Sequence record: MW882907
Length of the DNA stretch: 64,000 nucleotides
Direction: 5' to 3' (one strand)
From: Escherichia phage vB_EcoM_SQ17
The notes below the pieces were generated by a model. The model saw only the letters and a program-made list of their open reading frames with translations, was not told where the DNA came from and did no database searches. Below, piece after piece: positions 9,020-63,242 of this stretch (position 1 is the first letter of the stretch; each line of letters begins with the position of its first letter). Made by a program: the position numbers and the translations under genes.

Positions 9020-10588
9020 ATGACTACTATCAAAACTAAAGCTCAGCTCGTAGACAAATGGAAAGAACTGCTGGAAGGTGAAGGCCTGCCGGAAATCGCT
9101 AATAGCAAGCAGGCTATTATCGCTAAAATCTTCGAAAACCAGGAAAAAGATTTCGAAGTATCCCCTGAATATAAAGACGAGAAAATCGCTCAGGCATTTG
9201 GTTCTTTCTTGACCGAAGCTGAAATTGGTGGTGACCACGGTTATAATGCTCAGAACATCGCAGCAGGTCAAACCTCTGGTGCAGTAACCCAGATTGGGCC
9301 GGCAGTTATGGGTATGGTTCGTCGTGCTATTCCTAATCTGATCGCTTTCGATATTTGTGGTGTTCAGCCTATGAACAGCCCTACCGGTCAGGTATTTGCT
9401 CTCCGTGCAGTATATGGTAAAGACCCTATCGCTGCTGACGCTAAAGAAGCTTTCCATCCGATGTATGCTCCAGACGCGATGTTCTCTGGTCAGGGTGCTG
9501 CTAAGAAATTCCCAGCTCTGGCTGCTAGCACACAAACCGTTGTAGGTGATATCTATACTCACTTCTTCCAGGACACTGGTACTGTGTATCTACAAGCTTC
9601 CGCTGTAGTAACAATTGATGCTGGCGCTACCGATGCAACTAAATTAGATGCTGAAATTAAGAAACAAATGGAAGCTGGTGCACTGGTAGAAATCGCTGAA
9701 GGTATGGCTACTTCTATCGCTGAACTTCAGGAAGGCTTCAATGGTTCTACCGACAACCCGTGGAACGAAATGGGCTTCCGTATCGACAAACAAGTTATTG
9801 AAGCTAAATCTCGTCAGCTGAAAGCAGCTTACTCCATCGAATTGGCACAAGACCTCCGTGCAGTACACGGTATGGATGCTGATGCTGAACTGAGCGGTAT
9901 TCTTGCTACTGAAATTATGCTGGAAATCAACCGTGAAGTTGTTGACTGGATTAACTACTCCGCTCAGGTTGGTAAATCTGGTATGACTAATATCGTTGGT
10001 TCTAAAGCTGGTGTATTTGACTTCCAGGACCCGATTGATATCCGTGGTGCTCGTTGGGCCGGTGAAAGCTTTAAAGCTCTGTTGTTCCAGATTGATAAAG
10101 AAGCAGTTGAAATTGCTCGTCAAACCGGCCGTGGTGAAGGTAACTTCATTATCGCTTCCCGTAACGTAGTTAACGTACTGGCTTCAGTTGATACTGGTAT
10201 TTCTTACGCTGCACAGGGTCTGGCTTCTGGTTTTAATACCGACACTACTAAATCTGTATTTGCCGGTGTACTTGGTGGTAAATACCGCGTATACATCGAC
10301 CAGTATGCTAAACAGGATTACTTCACCGTTGGTTACAAAGGTGCTAACGAAATGGATGCAGGTATTTACTATGCTCCTTACGTTGCACTTACCCCACTGC
10401 GTGGTTCCGATCCTAAGAACTTCCAGCCGGTAATGGGCTTTAAAACTCGTTACGGTATCGGTGTTAACCCGTTTGCTGAAAGTTCCCTGCAGGCTCCAGG
10501 TGCTCGCATCCAGTCCGGTATGCCGTCTATCCTGAACAGCCTTGGTAAGAACGCTTACTTTAGACGCGTCTACGTTAAAGGAATTTAA
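9020..10588 (+). CDS. 23: Major capsid protein gp23
   Basis: 522 aa; almost identical to recalled T4 gp23 (MTIKTKA..LLEGEGLPEIANSKQAIIAKIFENQEKDF...). Confidence 0.98.
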   Translation: MTTIKTKAQLVDKWKELLEGEGLPEIANSKQAIIAKIFENQEKDFEVSPEYKDEKIAQAFGSFLTEAEIGGDHGYNAQNIAAGQTSGAVTQIGPAVMGMVRRAIPNLIAFDICGVQPMNSPTGQVFALRAVYGKDPIAADAKEAFHPMYAPDAMFSGQGAAKKFPALAASTQTVVGDIYTHFFQDTGTVYLQASAVVTIDAGATDATKLDAEIKKQMEAGALVEIAEGMATSIAELQEGFNGSTDNPWNEMGFRIDKQVIEAKSRQLKAAYSIELAQDLRAVHGMDADAELSGILATEIMLEINREVVDWINYSAQVGKSGMTNIVGSKAGVFDFQDPIDIRGARWAGESFKALLFQIDKEAVEIARQTGRGEGNFIIASRNVVNVLASVDTGISYAAQGLASGFNTDTTKSVFAGVLGGKYRVYIDQYAKQDYFTVGYKGANEMDAGIYYAPYVALTPLRGSDPKNFQPVMGFKTRYGIGVNPFAESSLQAPGARIQSGMPSILNSLGKNAYFRRVYVKGI

Positions 10589-10615
10589 TGCTTTAACGTT
10601 AAAATACATAACCTT

Positions 10616-10645
10616 ATGGGAGACTTCGGTCTCCCATTCTTGTTT
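10616..10645 (+). terminator. Stem-loop terminator downstream of gene 23 (ATGGGAGAC-TTCG-GTCTCCCAT then T-rich)
   Basis: Perfect 9-bp stem with TTCG tetraloop followed by TCTTGTTTC. Confidence 0.7.
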
Positions 10646-10650
10646 CTATA

Positions 10651-10917
10651 CTATGCAATCTTAACTCGGCGGTTGATGATATCACGGAAGTCAATACGAT
10701 TTTCTTGGATTTTCAGCCAGTTACCAGATTTGTCTTTGGTATGGGTAGAATATTCACCGTTCCACCAGAAGTCAGTTTCATAAGCCAGGGCTTCGTATTT
10801 CTTAACCAATGCATTAACTGCATTACCGTTAGGATTGGTACCAAATTTTTCTACCAGAGCTTTGATGTCTTTGTCAAGGTTAGAAAGTGTGGTACGGATA
10901 AAGTTTAATTTGTTCAT
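10651..10917 (-). CDS. Hypothetical small protein (about 88 aa) transcribed antisense between genes 23 and 24
   Basis: ORF 10651..10932; likely start is second Met (MNKLNF) preceded by GAGGAG-type RBS; early-promoter motif immediately upstream. Confidence 0.55.
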   Translation of the reverse strand: MNKLNFIRTTLSNLDKDIKALVEKFGTNPNGNAVNALVKKYEALAYETDFWWNGEYSTHTKDKSGNWLKIQENRIDFRDIINRRVKIA

Positions 10918-10946
10918 TTTTAATCTCCTCATGTTTTGATAGGTCT

Positions 10947-10976
10947 ATAGTAACACAACACTTTTTGTGTGTAAAC
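10947..10976 (-). promoter_or_regulatory. T4-type early promoter (minus strand; -35 GTTTAC, 18-nt spacer, -10 TACTAT)
   Basis: Plus-strand ATAGTA ... GTAAAC pattern that recurs upstream of many minus-strand genes in this window. Confidence 0.5.
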
Positions 10977-10982
10977 CACTTT

Positions 10983-10990
10983 TATAAATA
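10983..10990 (+). promoter_or_regulatory. T4 late promoter core TATAAATA for gene 24
   Basis: Exact TATAAATA about 30 nt upstream of gene 24 start. Confidence 0.65.
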
Positions 10991-11020
10991 AAATTATATT
11001 CTCAATAAGGAAAAAATGCA

Positions 11021-12304
11021 ATGAGTAAAATCCAAAAATTATTGCGTGAATCTACAACGTCTATTAGCAACTCAATTGGTCGCCCAAATCTCGTTGCTTT
11101 GACTCGCGCTACGACTAAATTAATATATTCTGACATTGTAGCAACACAAAGAACTAATCAACCTGTTGCTGCTTTTTATGGTATCAAATATCTTAACCCA
11201 GGCAATGAATTTACATTTAAAACTGGTGCTACTTATGCTGGCGAAGTTGGATATGTAGACCGAGAAAAAATTACTGAACTCACAGAAGAATCAAAAGTCA
11301 CACTAAATAAAGGCGATTTTTTCAAATATAATAATATCGTCTATAAAGTGTTAGAAGATACACCGTTTGCAGATATTCAAGAAAGTGATCTAGAATTAGC
11401 TCTTCAGATTGCGGTCGTTCATTTAAAGGTACGGTTATTTTCAGATGCAGCGGTAACAAGCAAATTTGAAAGCTCTGATAGCGAAATTTCTGATGCAAGA
11501 TTCCAGATTAATAAATGGCAAACTTCAGTCAAATCTCGTAAACTTAAAACCGGCCTCACGGTTGAATTAGCGCAAGATTTGGAAGCGAATGGATTTGATG
11601 CCCCTAACTTCTTAGAAGATTTGCTTGCTACTGAAATGGCTGATGAAATTAATAAAGATATTCTTCAGTCTTTAATTACTGTATCGAAACGTTATAAAGT
11701 TACTGGAATTACTGACACCGGATTTATTGACTTGAGCTATGCATCTGCTCCAGAAGCAGGTCGTTCATTATATCGAATGGTGTGTGAAATGGTATCACAC
11801 ATTCAAAAAGAGACAACTTATACTGCAACGTTTTGTGTAGCCTCAGCTCGTGCAGCTGCTATTCTTGCTGCTTCCGGTTGGTTAAAACATAAGCCAGAAG
11901 ATGACAAGTATCTTTCACAAAATGCTTATGGATTCTTGGCAAATGGATTACCTCTTTACTGCGATACCAACAGTCCGTTAGATTATGTTATTGTGGGTGT
12001 TGTAGAAAATATCGGCGAAAAAGAAATTGTAGGGTCCATCTTTTACGCTCCATACACTGAAGGAGTAGATTTAGATGACCCGGAACATGTTGGTGCATTT
12101 AAAGTTGTAGTTGATCCAGAAAGCTTGCAACCGTCTATCGGATTATTGGTTAGATATGCTTTATCAGCAAATCCTTACACAGTAGCAAAAGATGAAAAAG
12201 AAGCGAGAATAATTGATGGCGGGGACATGGATAAAATGGCAGGACGTTCAGACTTGTCTGTTTTACTCGGTGTTAAATTGCCAAAAATCATCGTTGATGA
12301 ATAA
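11021..12304 (+). CDS. 24: Capsid vertex protein gp24
   Basis: 427 aa, same as T4 gp24; paralogue-like similarity to gp23 fold region; gene order. Confidence 0.95.
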   Translation: MSKIQKLLRESTTSISNSIGRPNLVALTRATTKLIYSDIVATQRTNQPVAAFYGIKYLNPGNEFTFKTGATYAGEVGYVDREKITELTEESKVTLNKGDFFKYNNIVYKVLEDTPFADIQESDLELALQIAVVHLKVRLFSDAAVTSKFESSDSEISDARFQINKWQTSVKSRKLKTGLTVELAQDLEANGFDAPNFLEDLLATEMADEINKDILQSLITVSKRYKVTGITDTGFIDLSYASAPEAGRSLYRMVCEMVSHIQKETTYTATFCVASARAAAILAASGWLKHKPEDDKYLSQNAYGFLANGLPLYCDTNSPLDYVIVGVVENIGEKEIVGSIFYAPYTEGVDLDDPEHVGAFKVVVDPESLQPSIGLLVRYALSANPYTVAKDEKEARIIDGGDMDKMAGRSDLSVLLGVKLPKIIVDE

Positions 12305-25961: not shown

Positions 25962-26255
25962 TTATTTACGGAATGAAAGGAATGCTGGTGCTCGGAATGG
26001 AGTATCATCTTTAGAGTATTTAACTAATACGACCATTGGTACCTCTGTTTCTAAATGACCTGTCACTACACCAACAAAAATTTGATCAGTGTGCTCAGGG
26101 TCGCGAAAGTTTTTAAGAGGTTCCATAGCAATATGGAATGCACCTGGGAATACTCGATTCAATTCGTCAATCACAGCTTCGTTAAAAGCATCATCCGCCG
26201 GGATAACATCTTCAACTACTAGTTCTTGACCATTAAAGCGAAGCATAGATTTCAT
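25962..26255 (-). CDS. Hypothetical protein downstream of alt (T4 alt.-1/-2/-3 position)
   Basis: Track ORF 25962..26327; early-promoter motif lies inside the 5' extension, so start placed at internal Met (MKSMLRF) with GAGGA RBS. Confidence 0.55.
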   Translation of the reverse strand: MKSMLRFNGQELVVEDVIPADDAFNEAVIDELNRVFPGAFHIAMEPLKNFRDPEHTDQIFVGVVTGHLETEVPMVVLVKYSKDDTPFRAPAFLSFRK

Positions 26256-26284
26256 AACGTTTTCCTCATGTTGTTGATGGGATG

Positions 26285-26314
26285 ATAGTATCACACATCC
26301 ATGTGTTTGTAAAC
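26285..26314 (-). promoter_or_regulatory. T4-type early promoter (minus strand)
   Basis: Plus ATAGTA (26285-26290), 18 nt, GTAAAC (26309-26314). Confidence 0.5.
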
Positions 26315-28401
26315 TATCCTTGGACAAATTTAAACGGAACTGATTCTAAATCCATTAAAGATGCTAACAATTTCAATCCTTTAGGAGCACTAGTTTTTTC
26401 TACAAATGAGGAGAACGATACCGGCCCATCTGATTCGATTTCACCCGTCATAGCAACCACATCGCCTGTTTCCATGAGAACATCACCATCGTAAATGACA
26501 GCTTCGTCCAACTGGTCCGAGGACATAACTTCGGCTTGAATAAATTTAAGGTTGGATTCTAAACCTGCACCAGTGTCAGATGACGCATCTGTAATTTTAT
26601 TTATCTGCAAGAGAATGCCTCTAGGCAAAATAATTTCTTGCTCATTAGGGTGATTACTCAACTGTCCAGGATAAATCACGTTAACTTTATGAGCGCCATC
26701 AATAGCCCATCCAACGTTAACACGGATTTGTTCTGGTGCATGCATAGCTGTTCTTACTTGACTAGGAGAAATAGTAACACCTTCGTCATTATTATCAATG
26801 TTAAGCTCTTTGCGAACTTCTTCAGGAGCAAGTCCAAGGGCAACGTTCTCTTTAAACCCACCGAAAATAATAGGAGCTAGTGAAGTGGAAACATAGTTTC
26901 TGAAGTAGAATACCTTATTTTTAACCATTGCTTCGTAAATAGGCATTCTGATAGACTGAGCTCTATATAACGTTAGTCCTTCAGGTAAACGATCTCCATT
27001 TAAAAACGCCGAATCAAGACCATCAATAGCGCGTTTAACTTCATCTTCATCTGCAACATCGTAAAAATCTGGTTTATAACGACCTAACAGCATATTATTG
27101 ATATCGGTATACGCAGAAGAGGCATATTCACGAATAGCTCGTTTTTCAGCAACAGAGTATTGATTAGGGACCCGATTCATTGTTATATTAAAGGTGCCTC
27201 TAGCCGATTCTCGTGCATAAGTATACATCACATTAGACAAGAACGCTGATTTACGTTGTTTCCAAGTTTTTTCAGATACTTCAGCTAAAACGTCGTCAGC
27301 CAGTTGGAAATTATCACGTCTAAAATCTTCAAACCATTCGTCTTTAATAGAGTCTGCAATTTCATTTGCAGCTTCAACAAAAGCAGCTAATGCTTTAACA
27401 GATGTTGTTTTTTCAGTTTTAATTTTCTTAGCAAACTTTTCTAAAGTTGGCTTAATAACATCACCATAAGAAACTTCATCGGCAAATCTAAAGGATTCAT
27501 CAATACGATTATAAATCTTATTTTCGATATCAGCAACTAAAGTGCCTTTTGCTGTGGACGATGCTTGGGCTAGTACGATTTCATATGCTTCAGGAAGTAA
27601 TTCGGCTGTAGCTGGGCCACTAACTTCTTTAGCAGAATTTTCGTATTTCTGGAATAACTCACCTTCTTGTCGGTCAGCTTCTAAAGATTGACTTGCTGCA
27701 ATAGCACGACGAGAAATTTTAGTACGAGCAATAACAGGCTTATCTTTACGTTTTTCTTCTACAGCAGCAATAGAACCAGCGATAGCCGTTTCTTTGGTGA
27801 CCGTTTCGCCAGTCTTTTTACTCACATAAACTTCGCCAACATCAGAATCTACTTTCGTGTACAACTCTGTGTTAATGTTAGGGATGCCTTTAATATCTTC
27901 AATGTTAGCATTTTTACGAACCATCATCACATAGGTGTGTTTACCTGTGAATTGATACATTGCTGACAATACTTTAAAACGGCCACCGGTTTTAGTAGAA
28001 ACTAAACGAGCAAGAAGAGTTTGAAGTTGTTGTCCACGTCCTTTCAATTTCTTGGTAGGGAATCGGAACAGAACTGCATCCATACGAAGAGCTTTAACCT
28101 GTTCATATACTGTATTGAAAATGGTGTTGATTGCATCAATAGGAGCAGGACCAAGGCCATTTTTCAATTCAGCGAGATTACCCTTTTCAGACAGACTCAT
28201 AATAACAACATGAGCGTATTTGTCGCCAAGTTTAACTTGTTTTACAGCATCGCCTTCAGAAAGGTAAGAGAATAAGCGAACTACGATGTTTGTATCAACA
28301 TCACCAATTTTCCAGACTTGTGGAACTTTAGCTTTAGGGTTCAAATTGACGACAGGAAGACTGCCTTCAGATTCAAACACTTCATTCAATTGTTCAGACA
28401 T
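26314..28401 (-). CDS. alt: Alt ADP-ribosyltransferase (packaged, modifies host RNA polymerase)
   Basis: 695 aa (T4 Alt about 682 aa); R-S-EXE ART signature (YFRNYVSTS ... EQEIILPRG); position between gene 54 and ligase. Confidence 0.85.
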   Translation of the reverse strand: MSEQLNEVFESEGSLPVVNLNPKAKVPQVWKIGDVDTNIVVRLFSYLSEGDAVKQVKLGDKYAHVVIMSLSEKGNLAELKNGLGPAPIDAINTIFNTVYEQVKALRMDAVLFRFPTKKLKGRGQQLQTLLARLVSTKTGGRFKVLSAMYQFTGKHTYVMMVRKNANIEDIKGIPNINTELYTKVDSDVGEVYVSKKTGETVTKETAIAGSIAAVEEKRKDKPVIARTKISRRAIAASQSLEADRQEGELFQKYENSAKEVSGPATAELLPEAYEIVLAQASSTAKGTLVADIENKIYNRIDESFRFADEVSYGDVIKPTLEKFAKKIKTEKTTSVKALAAFVEAANEIADSIKDEWFEDFRRDNFQLADDVLAEVSEKTWKQRKSAFLSNVMYTYARESARGTFNITMNRVPNQYSVAEKRAIREYASSAYTDINNMLLGRYKPDFYDVADEDEVKRAIDGLDSAFLNGDRLPEGLTLYRAQSIRMPIYEAMVKNKVFYFRNYVSTSLAPIIFGGFKENVALGLAPEEVRKELNIDNNDEGVTISPSQVRTAMHAPEQIRVNVGWAIDGAHKVNVIYPGQLSNHPNEQEIILPRGILLQINKITDASSDTGAGLESNLKFIQAEVMSSDQLDEAVIYDGDVLMETGDVVAMTGEIESDGPVSFSSFVEKTSAPKGLKLLASLMDLESVPFKFVQG

Positions 28402-36487: not shown

Positions 36488-36724
36488 TTATAGTGTTCCA
36501 TATACTCGAGTTGCTTCAACAAGACCATCACTGCCTAATTTAAGATTAGTAATTTGGTCACCATCTTTAGGATTAACGATTATGAGAAAAGAACGTGGAG
36601 ATTCTTGAATAACTCGTAATGTTGCATCTTGGAAACGTTCAGACACTTTATTGATGAGTGCTTGAGCAAATTCTTTTACTTTAATCTGAAATTCGTGTAC
36701 TGTAATTGGGTTTTCACTTAGCAT
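36488..36724 (-). CDS. Hypothetical protein (cd.x region)
   Basis: 78-aa ORF with early promoter upstream. Confidence 0.5.
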   Translation of the reverse strand: MLSENPITVHEFQIKVKEFAQALINKVSERFQDATLRVIQESPRSFLIIVNPKDGDQITNLKLGSDGLVEATRVYGTL

Positions 36725-36752
36725 TTCTATTTCCTCATTTGTTGGTAGAGTT

Positions 36753-36782
36753 ATAGTATCACAACTCCACCATGTTGTAAAC
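36753..36782 (-). promoter_or_regulatory. T4-type early promoter (minus strand)
   Basis: Plus ATAGTA, 18 nt, GTAAAC. Confidence 0.5.
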
Positions 36783-36784
36783 CA

Positions 36785-37060
36785 TTAAATTGCTTTGCAT
36801 TCAATTTTTTGTGTACCGAAATTGATATCACATTGGATAACTAAATCACCGTCAAGATCAAATACCACTATGACGTGTGCAGACCCAGGGAGAAGAGTAA
36901 TAGCAATAGAATCTACTTGGTCTGGGAGCAAAGCATTGAGTACATGAGTTAGTTGAGCATGAACTCTGAGTTCGGCTGCATTATCAAGCACTTCAAACAT
37001 ATTATTAGCAATAATCTGACTGAAGACTACCTTTACAATTTCAGAATAAGTTGGGAACAT
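36785..37060 (-). CDS. Hypothetical protein (cd.x region)
   Basis: 91-aa ORF. Confidence 0.5.
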   Translation of the reverse strand: MFPTYSEIVKVVFSQIIANNMFEVLDNAAELRVHAQLTHVLNALLPDQVDSIAITLLPGSAHVIVVFDLDGDLVIQCDINFGTQKIECKAI

Positions 37061-39766: not shown

Positions 39767-40254
39767 GTTTTAATAATCTCAATGATTTCATCTCGGGATA
39801 ATCCATTGATAAGAACGGTTTTCGGACCATCGCACTGGATTTTGTACGATTCAAACAATACACACAACTCTTCTGCTGTATGATACGGACTTGAGATTCC
39901 GAGACGGTTGAATTTGTCGGTAAGAGGGTCGCAAATAATGTAGAATTTTATACCTGCGATATGTACATTTGGTTGACTAATATTAATGAACACGTTAGCG
40001 TCGTATTTAGACAAATTGTTTTGAAGAAATTCTACCATAGCATTAACTGCTTCCGGCATCGCTTCGCGTTTCTCTTCAGCGTATCGGGTGGAATACTCTT
40101 TTTGTTTTACTTTCTTTTTAAGATTTTTTGCCAGTGTAACACGTAAGTCAGTAAGATAACCAACTGGACGTCCTTTCTTAAAGACTCGGATTCCATCTGT
40201 GGAATCACCAAATGCTGCCACAACCATATCGTTAGTAATCAATTGCATATTCAT
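39754..40254 (-). CDS. alc: Alc-like protein (host transcription shutoff), assigned by position
   Basis: Track ORF 39754..40317; early promoter lies in the 5' extension, so start set to internal ATG (MNMQLI) after CTCCTC-complement RBS; 166 aa vs 167 aa T4 Alc. Confidence 0.6.
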   Translation of the reverse strand: MNMQLITNDMVVAAFGDSTDGIRVFKKGRPVGYLTDLRVTLAKNLKKKVKQKEYSTRYAEEKREAMPEAVNAMVEFLQNNLSKYDANVFINISQPNVHIAGIKFYIICDPLTDKFNRLGISSPYHTAEELCVLFESYKIQCDGPKTVLINGLSRDEIIEIIKTCLK

Positions 40255-40284
40255 AATTTTCTCCTCGTGATGTTGATAAAAGCC

Positions 40285-40314
40285 ATAGTAACACCTTCCT
40301 TGGTGTTTGTAAAC
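40285..40314 (-). promoter_or_regulatory. T4-type early promoter (minus strand)
   Basis: Plus ATAGTA, 18 nt, GTAAAC. Confidence 0.5.
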
Positions 40315-40316
40315 CA

Positions 40317-41450
<1,134 letters not shown>

Positions 41451-48535: not shown

Positions 48536-48927
48536 TACTTTTTAAAAGTTTTTTGCAAAAGTTTGATGATTTCGTCGACGTTAGTTTCATCTACGATACA
48601 ATGTATTTTTGTTACATCTAAAGCTATACCTTTGTTGGTAGATTGAGGCTTTACTAAATCTACCTCAGTAAAGTATTTGAACTCGTCAGGATAAATCTCA
48701 AAATAAGTTTCAATTTCACCACCGGCAGAACATACAGTACCGTCTTCCATAGTTACACTTACTACGTTTGGCGTATCGTCATCATAATCAGGTTCCATTC
48801 CGTTTACAACAAAACTAGGCCCATGGAGTTCAATCAATTTTAACATCTTAGCGTTATTATGTGGTGCTTCTTGAACAAAGTCGTCTTTAAATAAAGGGTT
48901 AATGATATAAGATTTTCCGATTTCCAT
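48535..48927 (-). CDS. Hypothetical protein (frd.2 position)
   Basis: 130-aa ORF with early promoter upstream. Confidence 0.55.
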   Translation of the reverse strand: MEIGKSYIINPLFKDDFVQEAPHNNAKMLKLIELHGPSFVVNGMEPDYDDDTPNVVSVTMEDGTVCSAGGEIETYFEIYPDEFKYFTEVDLVKPQSTNKGIALDVTKIHCIVDETNVDEIIKLLQKTFKK

Positions 48928-48955
48928 TTTGATTTCCTCATGTTGTTGATAGAAC

Positions 48956-48985
48956 TATAATATCACATCTAGGGAAGAAGTAAAC
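48956..48985 (-). promoter_or_regulatory. T4-type early promoter (minus strand)
   Basis: Plus TATAAT-like hexamer, about 18 nt, GTAAAC. Confidence 0.45.
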
Positions 48986-49004
48986 ATCTTTTTTGGCAAT
49001 TTAC

Positions 49005-49034
49005 AGATACTCAAAAGGGAGACCGAAGTCTCCC
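49005..49034 (-). terminator. Stem-loop terminator downstream of gene 32 (GGGAGAC-CGAA-GTCTCCC)
   Basis: Minus strand: hairpin then TTTTGAG; just beyond gp32 stop. Confidence 0.7.
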
Positions 49035-62761: not shown

Positions 62762-63034
62762 TTAGTTGTTAGAATACATCGTCAAATGGCGATAAATATT
62801 TTCAAAACCTTCATTGAATTCACTAATCAGTGTTTTCTTTTCTTCGGCAGTTAAATTTGTAATTAGTTTTCTGAACGAATTCTGATTTAGCTGCCGACCA
62901 TCTTTTTTAATTCCAATCTCATTCAAGAATCCGATGAAATTTGCTCGGTCTTCAACAATATCTTCCCTCGAGAATTTAATCAAAATAGAAGCAACCGTAA
63001 TAATTTCACGTACAATTTCAATATCTTTATTCAT
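62762..63034 (-). CDS. asiA: AsiA anti-sigma70 factor
   Basis: 90 aa; near-identical to recalled T4 AsiA (MNK.I..VREIITVASILIKFSREDIVE.RANFI.FLNEIG). Confidence 0.96.
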   Translation of the reverse strand: MNKDIEIVREIITVASILIKFSREDIVEDRANFIGFLNEIGIKKDGRQLNQNSFRKLITNLTAEEKKTLISEFNEGFENIYRHLTMYSNN

Positions 63035-63068
63035 AACGTTTTATTCATTCCATTTGGTTGATATGAGT

Positions 63069-63098
63069 ATAGTACCATTATCAGTGTTGATTGTAAAC
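63069..63098 (-). promoter_or_regulatory. T4-type early promoter upstream of asiA (minus strand)
   Basis: Plus ATAGTA, 18 nt, GTAAAC. Confidence 0.5.
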
Positions 63099-63242
63099 AG
63101 CTTTTTCTACACTTTTAACGTAATCAGTGTAGTCTTCCTGTTCATACGAGTGTAAGGCCAAGAACGTGGCTAATAGTTCATTATAGACTAAAGCCTCACG
63201 CTCACGTTCGGCCTCTACTACGTTCTGAAGATTATGGCTCAT
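63081..63242 (-). CDS. Hypothetical small protein (about 53 aa)
   Basis: Track ORF 63081..63296; likely start at internal ATG with AAGGA RBS, overlapping upstream gene end. Confidence 0.4.
   Translation of the reverse strand: MSHNLQNVVEAEREREALVYNELLATFLALHSYEQEDYTDYVKSVEKAVYNQH

Follow-up and report, generated by a model that had tools for sequence, protein, structure and literature searches.

We analysed a small open reading frame (ORF) that lies antisense in the gap between the capsid genes 23 and 24 in a stretch of 64,000 nt from Escherichia phage vB_EcoM_SQ17 (record MW882907), hereafter the window. The source is a Dhakavirus-like T-even phage of the Tevenvirinae, and the first 24 kb of the window are about 98% identical to the phages JK45, KAW3E185, F2 and JQD51. 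The gap measures 432 bp, and its minus strand carries the ORF, which ends with a TAG stop at 10653..10651. Around it are a T4-type early promoter with its leader, the late promoter of gene 24 on the opposite strand, a hairpin common to the two convergent transcripts, and a junction at which close relatives carry the homing endonuclease gene segD (Table 1).

Table 1. Features of the gap between genes 23 and 24 and of its flanks, in window positions
Feature	Position	Strand	Remark
Gene 23, major capsid protein, left flank	9020..10588	+	
9-bp GC-rich hairpin ATGGGAGACTTCGGTCTCCCAT	10616-10637	both	UUCG loop, U-rich tail on the plus strand; common to the convergent transcripts
segD-free junction	10639..10669	-	recoded 19 nt at 10669..10651; right junction TATAGAAACAAG at 10650..10639
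88-codon ORF with TAG stop	10651..10917	-	small basic soluble protein, PHROG 6003 (JS98 ORF173c / VR7ORF190c family)
Leader AGACCTATCAAAACATGAGGAGATTAAAA, including the Shine-Dalgarno sequence GAGGAG (10930..10925)	10918..10946	-	like the leaders of other early genes in the window
Extended -10 element TGT-TACTAT (TACTAT at 10952..10947)	10947..10955	-	TGnTACTAT also found at most of the window's remaining early promoters
GTTTAC, -35 hexamer of the early promoter (T4 type)	10976..10971	-	without variation among eight early promoters in the window
Late promoter TATAAATA of gene 24	10983..10990	+	matches the T4 late consensus; still present in T2, whose gap is empty
Gene 24, capsid vertex protein, right flank	11021..12304	+	

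Two in-frame ATG codons give the ORF either 93 residues (10651..10932, minus strand) or 88 residues (10651..10917), and an earlier interpretation of this DNA, made from the letters alone (the sequence-only reading), had accordingly described a minus-strand ORF of 88-93 residues with a strong ribosome-binding site. Judged by its sequence context, the genuine start is the 88-residue ATG (10917..10915), because the Shine-Dalgarno (SD) sequence GAGGAG sits 7 nt upstream of it and because the upstream ATG overlaps this SD as part of a leader motif that is repeated before unrelated early genes. The 93-residue start was rejected as an artefact, its ATG (10932..10930) being located inside the SD/leader motif CATGAGGA; the leader motif that holds this codon, ATCAACAACATGAGGAAA, likewise recurs upstream of unrelated early genes of the window. 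The orthologous genes annotated in relatives are 267 nt long. Both the ORF and its ribosome-binding site are thus present as described, in the shorter version.

Pairwise Nei-Gojobori comparison of ten Dhakavirus and Tequatrovirus alleles gave ratios of nonsynonymous to synonymous substitution rates (dN/dS) of 0.03-0.12 at dS of 0.14-0.8, instead of the value near 1 that the sequence-only reading had named as the mark of a frame without coding signature. These values point strongly to a real protein-coding gene under strong purifying selection. The product matches PHROG 6003 with an E-value of 2.2e-49 over residues 1-88 of the 90-position profile, which all 19 aligned members of the family match as well, and it is 100% identical to annotated hypothetical proteins of phages JS10 (EpJS10_0170) and MX01 (MX01_174). 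The ORF was found by tblastn in 130 phage records; for the gene 23/24 region, megablast gave matches in 1198 records. A word-indexed protein search extended the family to 23 clusters at 90% identity, and an exhaustive hidden Markov model search of 1.84 billion proteins (50%-identity cluster representatives) returned nine hits, comprising five full-length members, one fragment, one partial match and two repeat-protein artefacts (P0025 and P0026). Homologues with as little as 28-32% identity retain the length of the protein and the invariant residues K3, F6, N30-G31-N32, N35, A45 and Q71.

Outside this family, Pfam yielded only DUF5380 at E 0.12, below the cut-off, and no credible match to the protein was found in NCBIfam, PADLOC or the PDB sequences. 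A weak match within the window, to a 95-residue ORF downstream of rnh (the DsbA position), was rejected as a paralogue (hhalign probability 3.7%). We found no paper naming PHROG 6003 or the ORF, and the ORF is covered neither by the accessory-gene screen of Silas et al. nor by the AV110 early-protein screen. Annotations of identical proteins exist in many genomes, so the gene is not new; the ORFan cassette has been catalogued before and is of a familiar type. Several public annotations in this region are erroneous: the product names of JQD51 are shifted by one gene, the homologue of EAWsc9 is named 'glycosyl hydrolase family 25', and a JGI copy (P0019) is called 'curcumin reductase CurA'.

The ORF is preceded by GTTTAC, an 18-nt spacer and TACTAT, with a TG one base upstream of the -10 hexamer. 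A generic sigma-70 scan returned four sites against 3.8 expected, not above chance, and a phage-specific pattern, GTTTAC-N16-19-TAYTAT, was used in its place. It has nine matches in the window, every one of them on the minus strand, compared with an expectation of 0.18, and none of 100 shuffled sequences reached nine. The sites are located before rnh, the 166-residue ORF at the alc position, asiA and several small ORFs, and the early genes of the window also have in common the leader element TATCAACAACATGAGGAAA, so that the promoter architecture reported earlier for rnh, alc, asiA and the ORF is borne out. Across the orthologous loci of Dhaka-, Mosig- and Tequatroviruses both hexamers are kept, whereas the spacer sequence diverges.

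The T4 early consensus has GTTTAC at -36 to -31 (PMC1524935), and the orthologous site of phage RB69 was predicted in 2006 as early promoter Pe:109605, overlapping the gene 24 late promoter Pl:109573. The promoter of the ORF has the elements of the T4-type early class, namely GTTTAC at -35, a spacer of 17-18 nt, TAnnnT at -10 and a TG/GT-rich stretch upstream, and it shares its strand and leader architecture with bona fide early genes of the same genome. These features strongly suggest that the ORF cassette belongs to the early promoter class. Its translation initiation region is unstructured, with a minimum free energy of -1.4 kcal/mol. Further early promoters on the minus strand, at 26253-26336, 36722-36804, 40252-40336, 48925-49007 and 63032-63120, share the hexamers and the leader; the leader places the ATG about 29 nt after the -10 hexamer, and the repeated cassette amounts to about 60 nt. 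Such a repeated promoter-leader cassette could mediate recombination between early ORFs.

On the plus strand, the late promoter of gene 24 carries the T4 late consensus TATAAATA (PMC1524935) and lies only 6 nt from the -35 hexamer, and thus the early promoter and the gene 24 late promoter stand back-to-back. This arrangement explains the conserved AT-rich block upstream of the -35 hexamer, which is kept even in the empty gap of phage T2. An A-rich UP-like block was looked for at about -40 to -44; AAAAG is present, but since the gene 24 late promoter read in reverse complement makes up this block, its conservation has another explanation.

The hairpin at the other end of the gap is conserved in relatives and has a folding z-score of about -4 on both strands. 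It is a canonical terminator for gene 23 only, because no U-run follows it on the minus-strand side (AUAAGGUUAUGUAUUUU), and read-through antisense into gene 23 is possible for a transcript of the ORF. It sits between the stop of the ORF (10651) and that of gene 23 (10588), so a transcript ending at the hairpin would overlap only the 3' untranslated region of gene 23 and not its coding sequence. The earlier proposal of a hairpin-bounded transcript running antisense into the 3' end of gene 23 is therefore right about the presence of the hairpin, but a transcript bounded by it would stop short of the coding sequence. The corresponding hairpin of VR7-type phages has A- and T-runs on its two sides, which makes it look like a bidirectional terminator. 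An Rfam search of positions 10300-11300 gave no match.

The ORF was identified in the 23/24 gap of Dhaka-, Gapriver-, Mosig- and some Tequatroviruses, and the gap occurs in at least five states. It is empty in T2, where 83 bp hold only the late promoter and the hairpin. The ORF alone is found in the window, JS10, MX01, Bp7 and VR5, in the Tequatroviruses G28 and GEP001, in the Gapriverviruses VR7 and SP18, and in the Mosigvirus AV112. The ORF is accompanied by segD in JQD51, KAW3E185 and IME08, and segD stands alone in T4. Finally, the Tequatrovirus RPN226 carries a 503-residue antisense ORF (L021:1233-2744) with weak REase_MTES_1575-like and Mom-family matches, a further cargo type at the 23/24 hotspot. 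In RB69 (NC_004928, 109291-109531) the promoter is intact and the ORF is broken by two frameshifts into RB69ORF189c and RB69ORF188c, the copy being a pseudogene or else the product of an old sequencing error.

Beyond the T-even-like phages, homologues with 34-41% identity are present in ABPH49, listed under Vequintavirinae, as well as in a pair of metagenomic contigs whose gene arrays are similar; these rV5-like homologues sit in long arrays of small same-strand ORFs. A further metagenomic contig (L026) has a 71%-identical copy with the same leader adjoining tail genes, and directly after the stop of this homologue a GTTTAC-N18-TACTAT promoter-leader cassette (L026:3990-4060) drives the next small ORF. 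Since the same leader accompanies the gene in other contexts, the moving unit is the promoter, leader and ORF together. The comparison of the 23-24 region across T4-like phages, which had been proposed as a check, thus reveals a patchy cassette, with an empty gap in T2 and other cargo elsewhere. The patchy distribution, the decay in RB69 and the absence from T2 and T4 strongly suggest that the gene is accessory and mobile as a cassette. As a separate observation, two tandem gene 24 paralogues adjoin the ORF in VR7-type (Gaprivervirus-like) phages and in two metagenomic contigs (L004:1-1895; L017:2337-4901; L024:1338-3897).

The statement in the sequence-only reading that T4 carries segD at the 23/24 position is correct, segD being alone in the T4 gap. 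Its description of the ORF as a different cargo holds for the window, where the gap cargo is not segD, but about half of the close relatives carry the ORF and segD in tandem. The product of the ORF has no Pfam hit to a GIY-YIG domain, its 88 residues compare with about 220 for the endonuclease, and it is unrelated to the segD products of T4 and KAW3E185. In segD-positive relatives only 3 nt separate the stop of the ORF from the start of the endonuclease gene, which has no SD of its own; junction-specific searches found the free junction in 44 records and the ORF-segD junction in 38. Three segD-positive phages (L001, L007 and L011) on two backbones share an identical sequence over the final 19 nt of the ORF (10669..10651), and this sequence differs from the segD-free alleles at nine of the 19 positions, with one amino-acid change. 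This clustered, mostly synonymous recoding is expected if the endonuclease target spans the junction and the gene moves with a short co-converted tract. The window has the endonuclease-free allele, with a putative intact SegD-family target or insertion site at about 10639-10669.

In T4 (107233-107322), a promoter-like element, ATTTAC-18-TATTAT, and a homologous leader are fused directly to segD. According to a 2010 review, no segD-specific promoter could be found and transcript levels were assumed to be vanishingly low (PMC2988022), and in T4 omics data segD falls into the early-RNA/middle-protein class (PMC9697503 supplement). The early-RNA class of T4 segD gives indirect support for early activity of this promoter family. 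Together with the independent prediction of the orthologous RB69 promoter as early, it agrees with the early expression class originally proposed for the ORF.

An AlphaFold2 model was built from the 19-sequence alignment and is confident (pLDDT 93.7, pTM 0.79). It predicts a helix-helix-hairpin-helix arrangement with helices at residues 3-25, 31-48 and 77-87, the invariant NGN loop between the first two helices, and a beta hairpin at 52-61 / 67-71. The independent BFVD model of the ABPH49 homologue superposes on it with a TM-score of 0.90. Foldseek gave nothing below E 3 against the PDB and no relative in BFVD besides the ABPH49 homologue, and there is no fold or sequence similarity to known anti-defence proteins such as the DNA mimics Ocr and Arn or the signal sponges Acb2, Tad1, Tad2 and others, nor does the protein have the strongly acidic surface expected of a DNA mimic. 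The remote-homology search and structure prediction suggested at the outset therefore yielded a confident model, but no known relative by sequence or fold in Pfam, NCBIfam, PADLOC or the PDB. The protein has about 10 kDa, an isoelectric point (pI) of 9.5 and a grand average of hydropathicity (GRAVY) of -0.7. Among the 19 members, 18 are basic (pI 9.2-10, net charge +3 to +8), 16 have no cysteine, and none has a membrane segment; all are hydrophilic.

Taken together, we favour, with a probability of roughly 55%, the interpretation that the locus is a self-contained early cassette that encodes a non-essential early effector and has a segD insertion site at its 3' end. Host RNA polymerase would transcribe the cassette from GTTTAC-N18-TACTAT in the first minutes of infection, and the unstructured leader would give efficient translation of a basic, soluble 10-kDa protein. 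The protein would act stoichiometrically by binding a host or host-defence macromolecule, either protein or nucleic acid, during takeover, as a non-essential effector of the host-range or counter-defence type. In the sister phages, the comparison shows a SegD-family GIY-YIG endonuclease gene inserted at the 3' end and stop region of the ORF, where segD rides on the promoter of the ORF. The effector role is suggested by the predicted early expression, small size, lack of a catalytic motif, accessory distribution, decay in RB69 and horizontal sharing between unrelated virulent coliphages. A binder is preferred over an enzyme or a membrane protein because there is no Pfam, NCBIfam, PADLOC or PDB hit and because the protein is hydrophilic, basic and cysteine-poor. 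More specifically, the family may represent a new fold of early effectors, horizontally shared by T-even-like and rV5-like coliphages, that neutralises a host defence or host factor by binding through the K3/NGN/N35/Q71 surface, a proposal that we consider tentative.

Several points weigh against the favoured interpretation. The early expression of the ORF, in the phage of the window as in the other carriers, is a prediction from the promoter sequence, and the early RNA of T4 segD could stem from read-through of upstream early units instead of a local promoter. Cleavage by SegD at the junction is deduced from the recoding. The protein has no homology or fold similarity to a known anti-defence, takeover or exclusion protein, so its functional class is read from context, as an early, small, accessory and mobile gene. 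A nucleic-acid-binding regulator would fit the consistent basicity of the family just as well.

Such a regulator, a small basic protein acting on the phage's own transcription, translation or DNA metabolism, is the main rival, and we regard it as possible though rather doubtful. It would account for the net charge of +3 to +8 (pI 9.2-10), which 18 of 19 members retain even where identity falls to about 30%, for the invariant K3, N30, N32, N35 and Q71, residues of the kind used in phosphate and base contacts, and for the predicted early expression. However, the weak local match to T4-type DsbA did not survive profile comparison (hhalign probability 3.7%), and for an intrinsic regulator, absence from T4 and T2 or decay in RB69 would be surprising. 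The relationship with segD raises the alternative that the ORF persists mainly as a landing pad and expression platform for the endonuclease, lending it a promoter, a leader and translational coupling while doing little itself. The placement of segD 3 nt behind the stop without its own SD, the identical recoded 19-nt tract in all segD-positive alleles on two backbones, the division of the records into 38 with the ORF-segD junction and 44 without, and the reduction of the T4 cassette to promoter, leader and segD are all consistent with this view. It is nevertheless improbable, given that the whole protein is under strong purifying selection in segD-free lineages, that the family occurs without segD in Gaprivervirus, Mosigvirus and rV5-like phages and in another context in the L026 contig, and that T4 shows segD to be independent of the ORF.

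A packaged internal protein like IpI or IpII, injected with the DNA, would suit a small, basic product encoded between head genes, and the T4 ip genes are likewise on the minus strand; in addition, three Mosigvirus-type members (P0011, P0014 and P0016) weakly match phrog_8765 'internal virion protein' (E 0.0015-0.05, residues ~36-82), a match that the window protein does not share. We consider this quite unlikely, since there is no relation to T4 IpI or IpII (hhalign probability at most 2%), no conserved N-terminal targeting peptide ending at a gp21 (L/I)xE site and no late promoter TATAAATA on the minus strand. The LVE at residues 21-23 lies within the core helix 1 and is lost in VR7-type sequences, and the rV5-like copies belong to early-type arrays and not to head modules. 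Still less credence is given to the antisense transcript as the functional product, damping premature expression of genes 23 and 24 or pairing with the 3' end of the gene 23 mRNA, with the ORF incidental. The convergent orientation with gene 23 fits this idea, and with no U-tract on the ORF strand of the hairpin, read-through into antisense-23 is plausible, but the dN/dS of 0.03-0.12 reflects selection on the protein, the fold is kept at 30% identity where no capsid genes are nearby, and the T2 gap is empty. The least likely of all is a superinfection-exclusion or otherwise membrane-acting protein of the Imm/Sp type, which would also be early and accessory: the GRAVY of -0.7, the lack of a hydrophobic segment or signal peptide and the predicted compact soluble domain of three helices and a hairpin stand against it. 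The suggestion of the sequence-only reading that the gene serves superinfection exclusion or anti-defence thus gains no support in either direction from homology or fold, and the missing membrane segment argues against exclusion of the Imm/Sp kind.

The ORF is a clean, well-folded candidate for counter-defence and host-takeover screens, being under strong selection and having no known fold relative. Because T4 lacks the ORF, screens seeded from T4 early genes miss it. The comparison also suggests why T4 segD seemed promoterless and yet has early RNA, namely that a slightly degenerate cassette promoter and leader were retained. The recoded 19-nt tract offers a concrete candidate target site for SegD-family homing in Dhakaviruses.

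Among known systems, the PeSL-ORFan cassettes of phages RB49 and phi1 (Arbiol et al. 2010, PMC2839356) place an ORFan, at a plastic spot, directly behind a strong early promoter that is sigma-70-like and has an AT-rich block upstream; they occasionally occur inside virion modules, and the repeated cassettes could mediate shuffling (PMC2839356). The locus described here resembles them, its ORFan following directly on a strong early promoter in a region that is plastic. We did not file the cassette as PeSL, because the defining stable stem-loop within or next to the promoter is absent, the spacers folding no better than shuffled sequences (z around 0; 0.22 for the promoter of the ORF). The morons of temperate phages are similar in being extra genes with their own promoter, followed by a hairpin, that are inserted between structural genes and absent from close relatives. 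They differ in that the phage here is virulent and the expression expected is early lytic instead of prophage expression; moreover, the hairpin in the place of the moron terminator is that of gene 23 and is non-canonical on the ORF strand, where it lacks a U-run.

The T4 segD locus occupies the same gap in the same antisense orientation and has a homologous promoter-like element and leader, but T4 lacks the body of the ORF, whereas the window lacks the endonuclease gene and its cargo has no GIY-YIG domain. The RB69 gap contains both the orthologous early promoter Pe:109605 and the ORF, which is split by two frameshifts in the RB69 reference and intact in the window. Gaprivervirus-type proteins are 61-65% identical to the product of the ORF (65% for VR7). 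JS98 ORF173c, VR7ORF190c and their counterparts in JS10 and MX01 are the same gene in the same antisense position between genes 23 and 24, with no structural difference from the window. The locus therefore defines no new class of system, because the gene is a catalogued ORFan in an early accessory cassette of a type familiar from T4-like phages.
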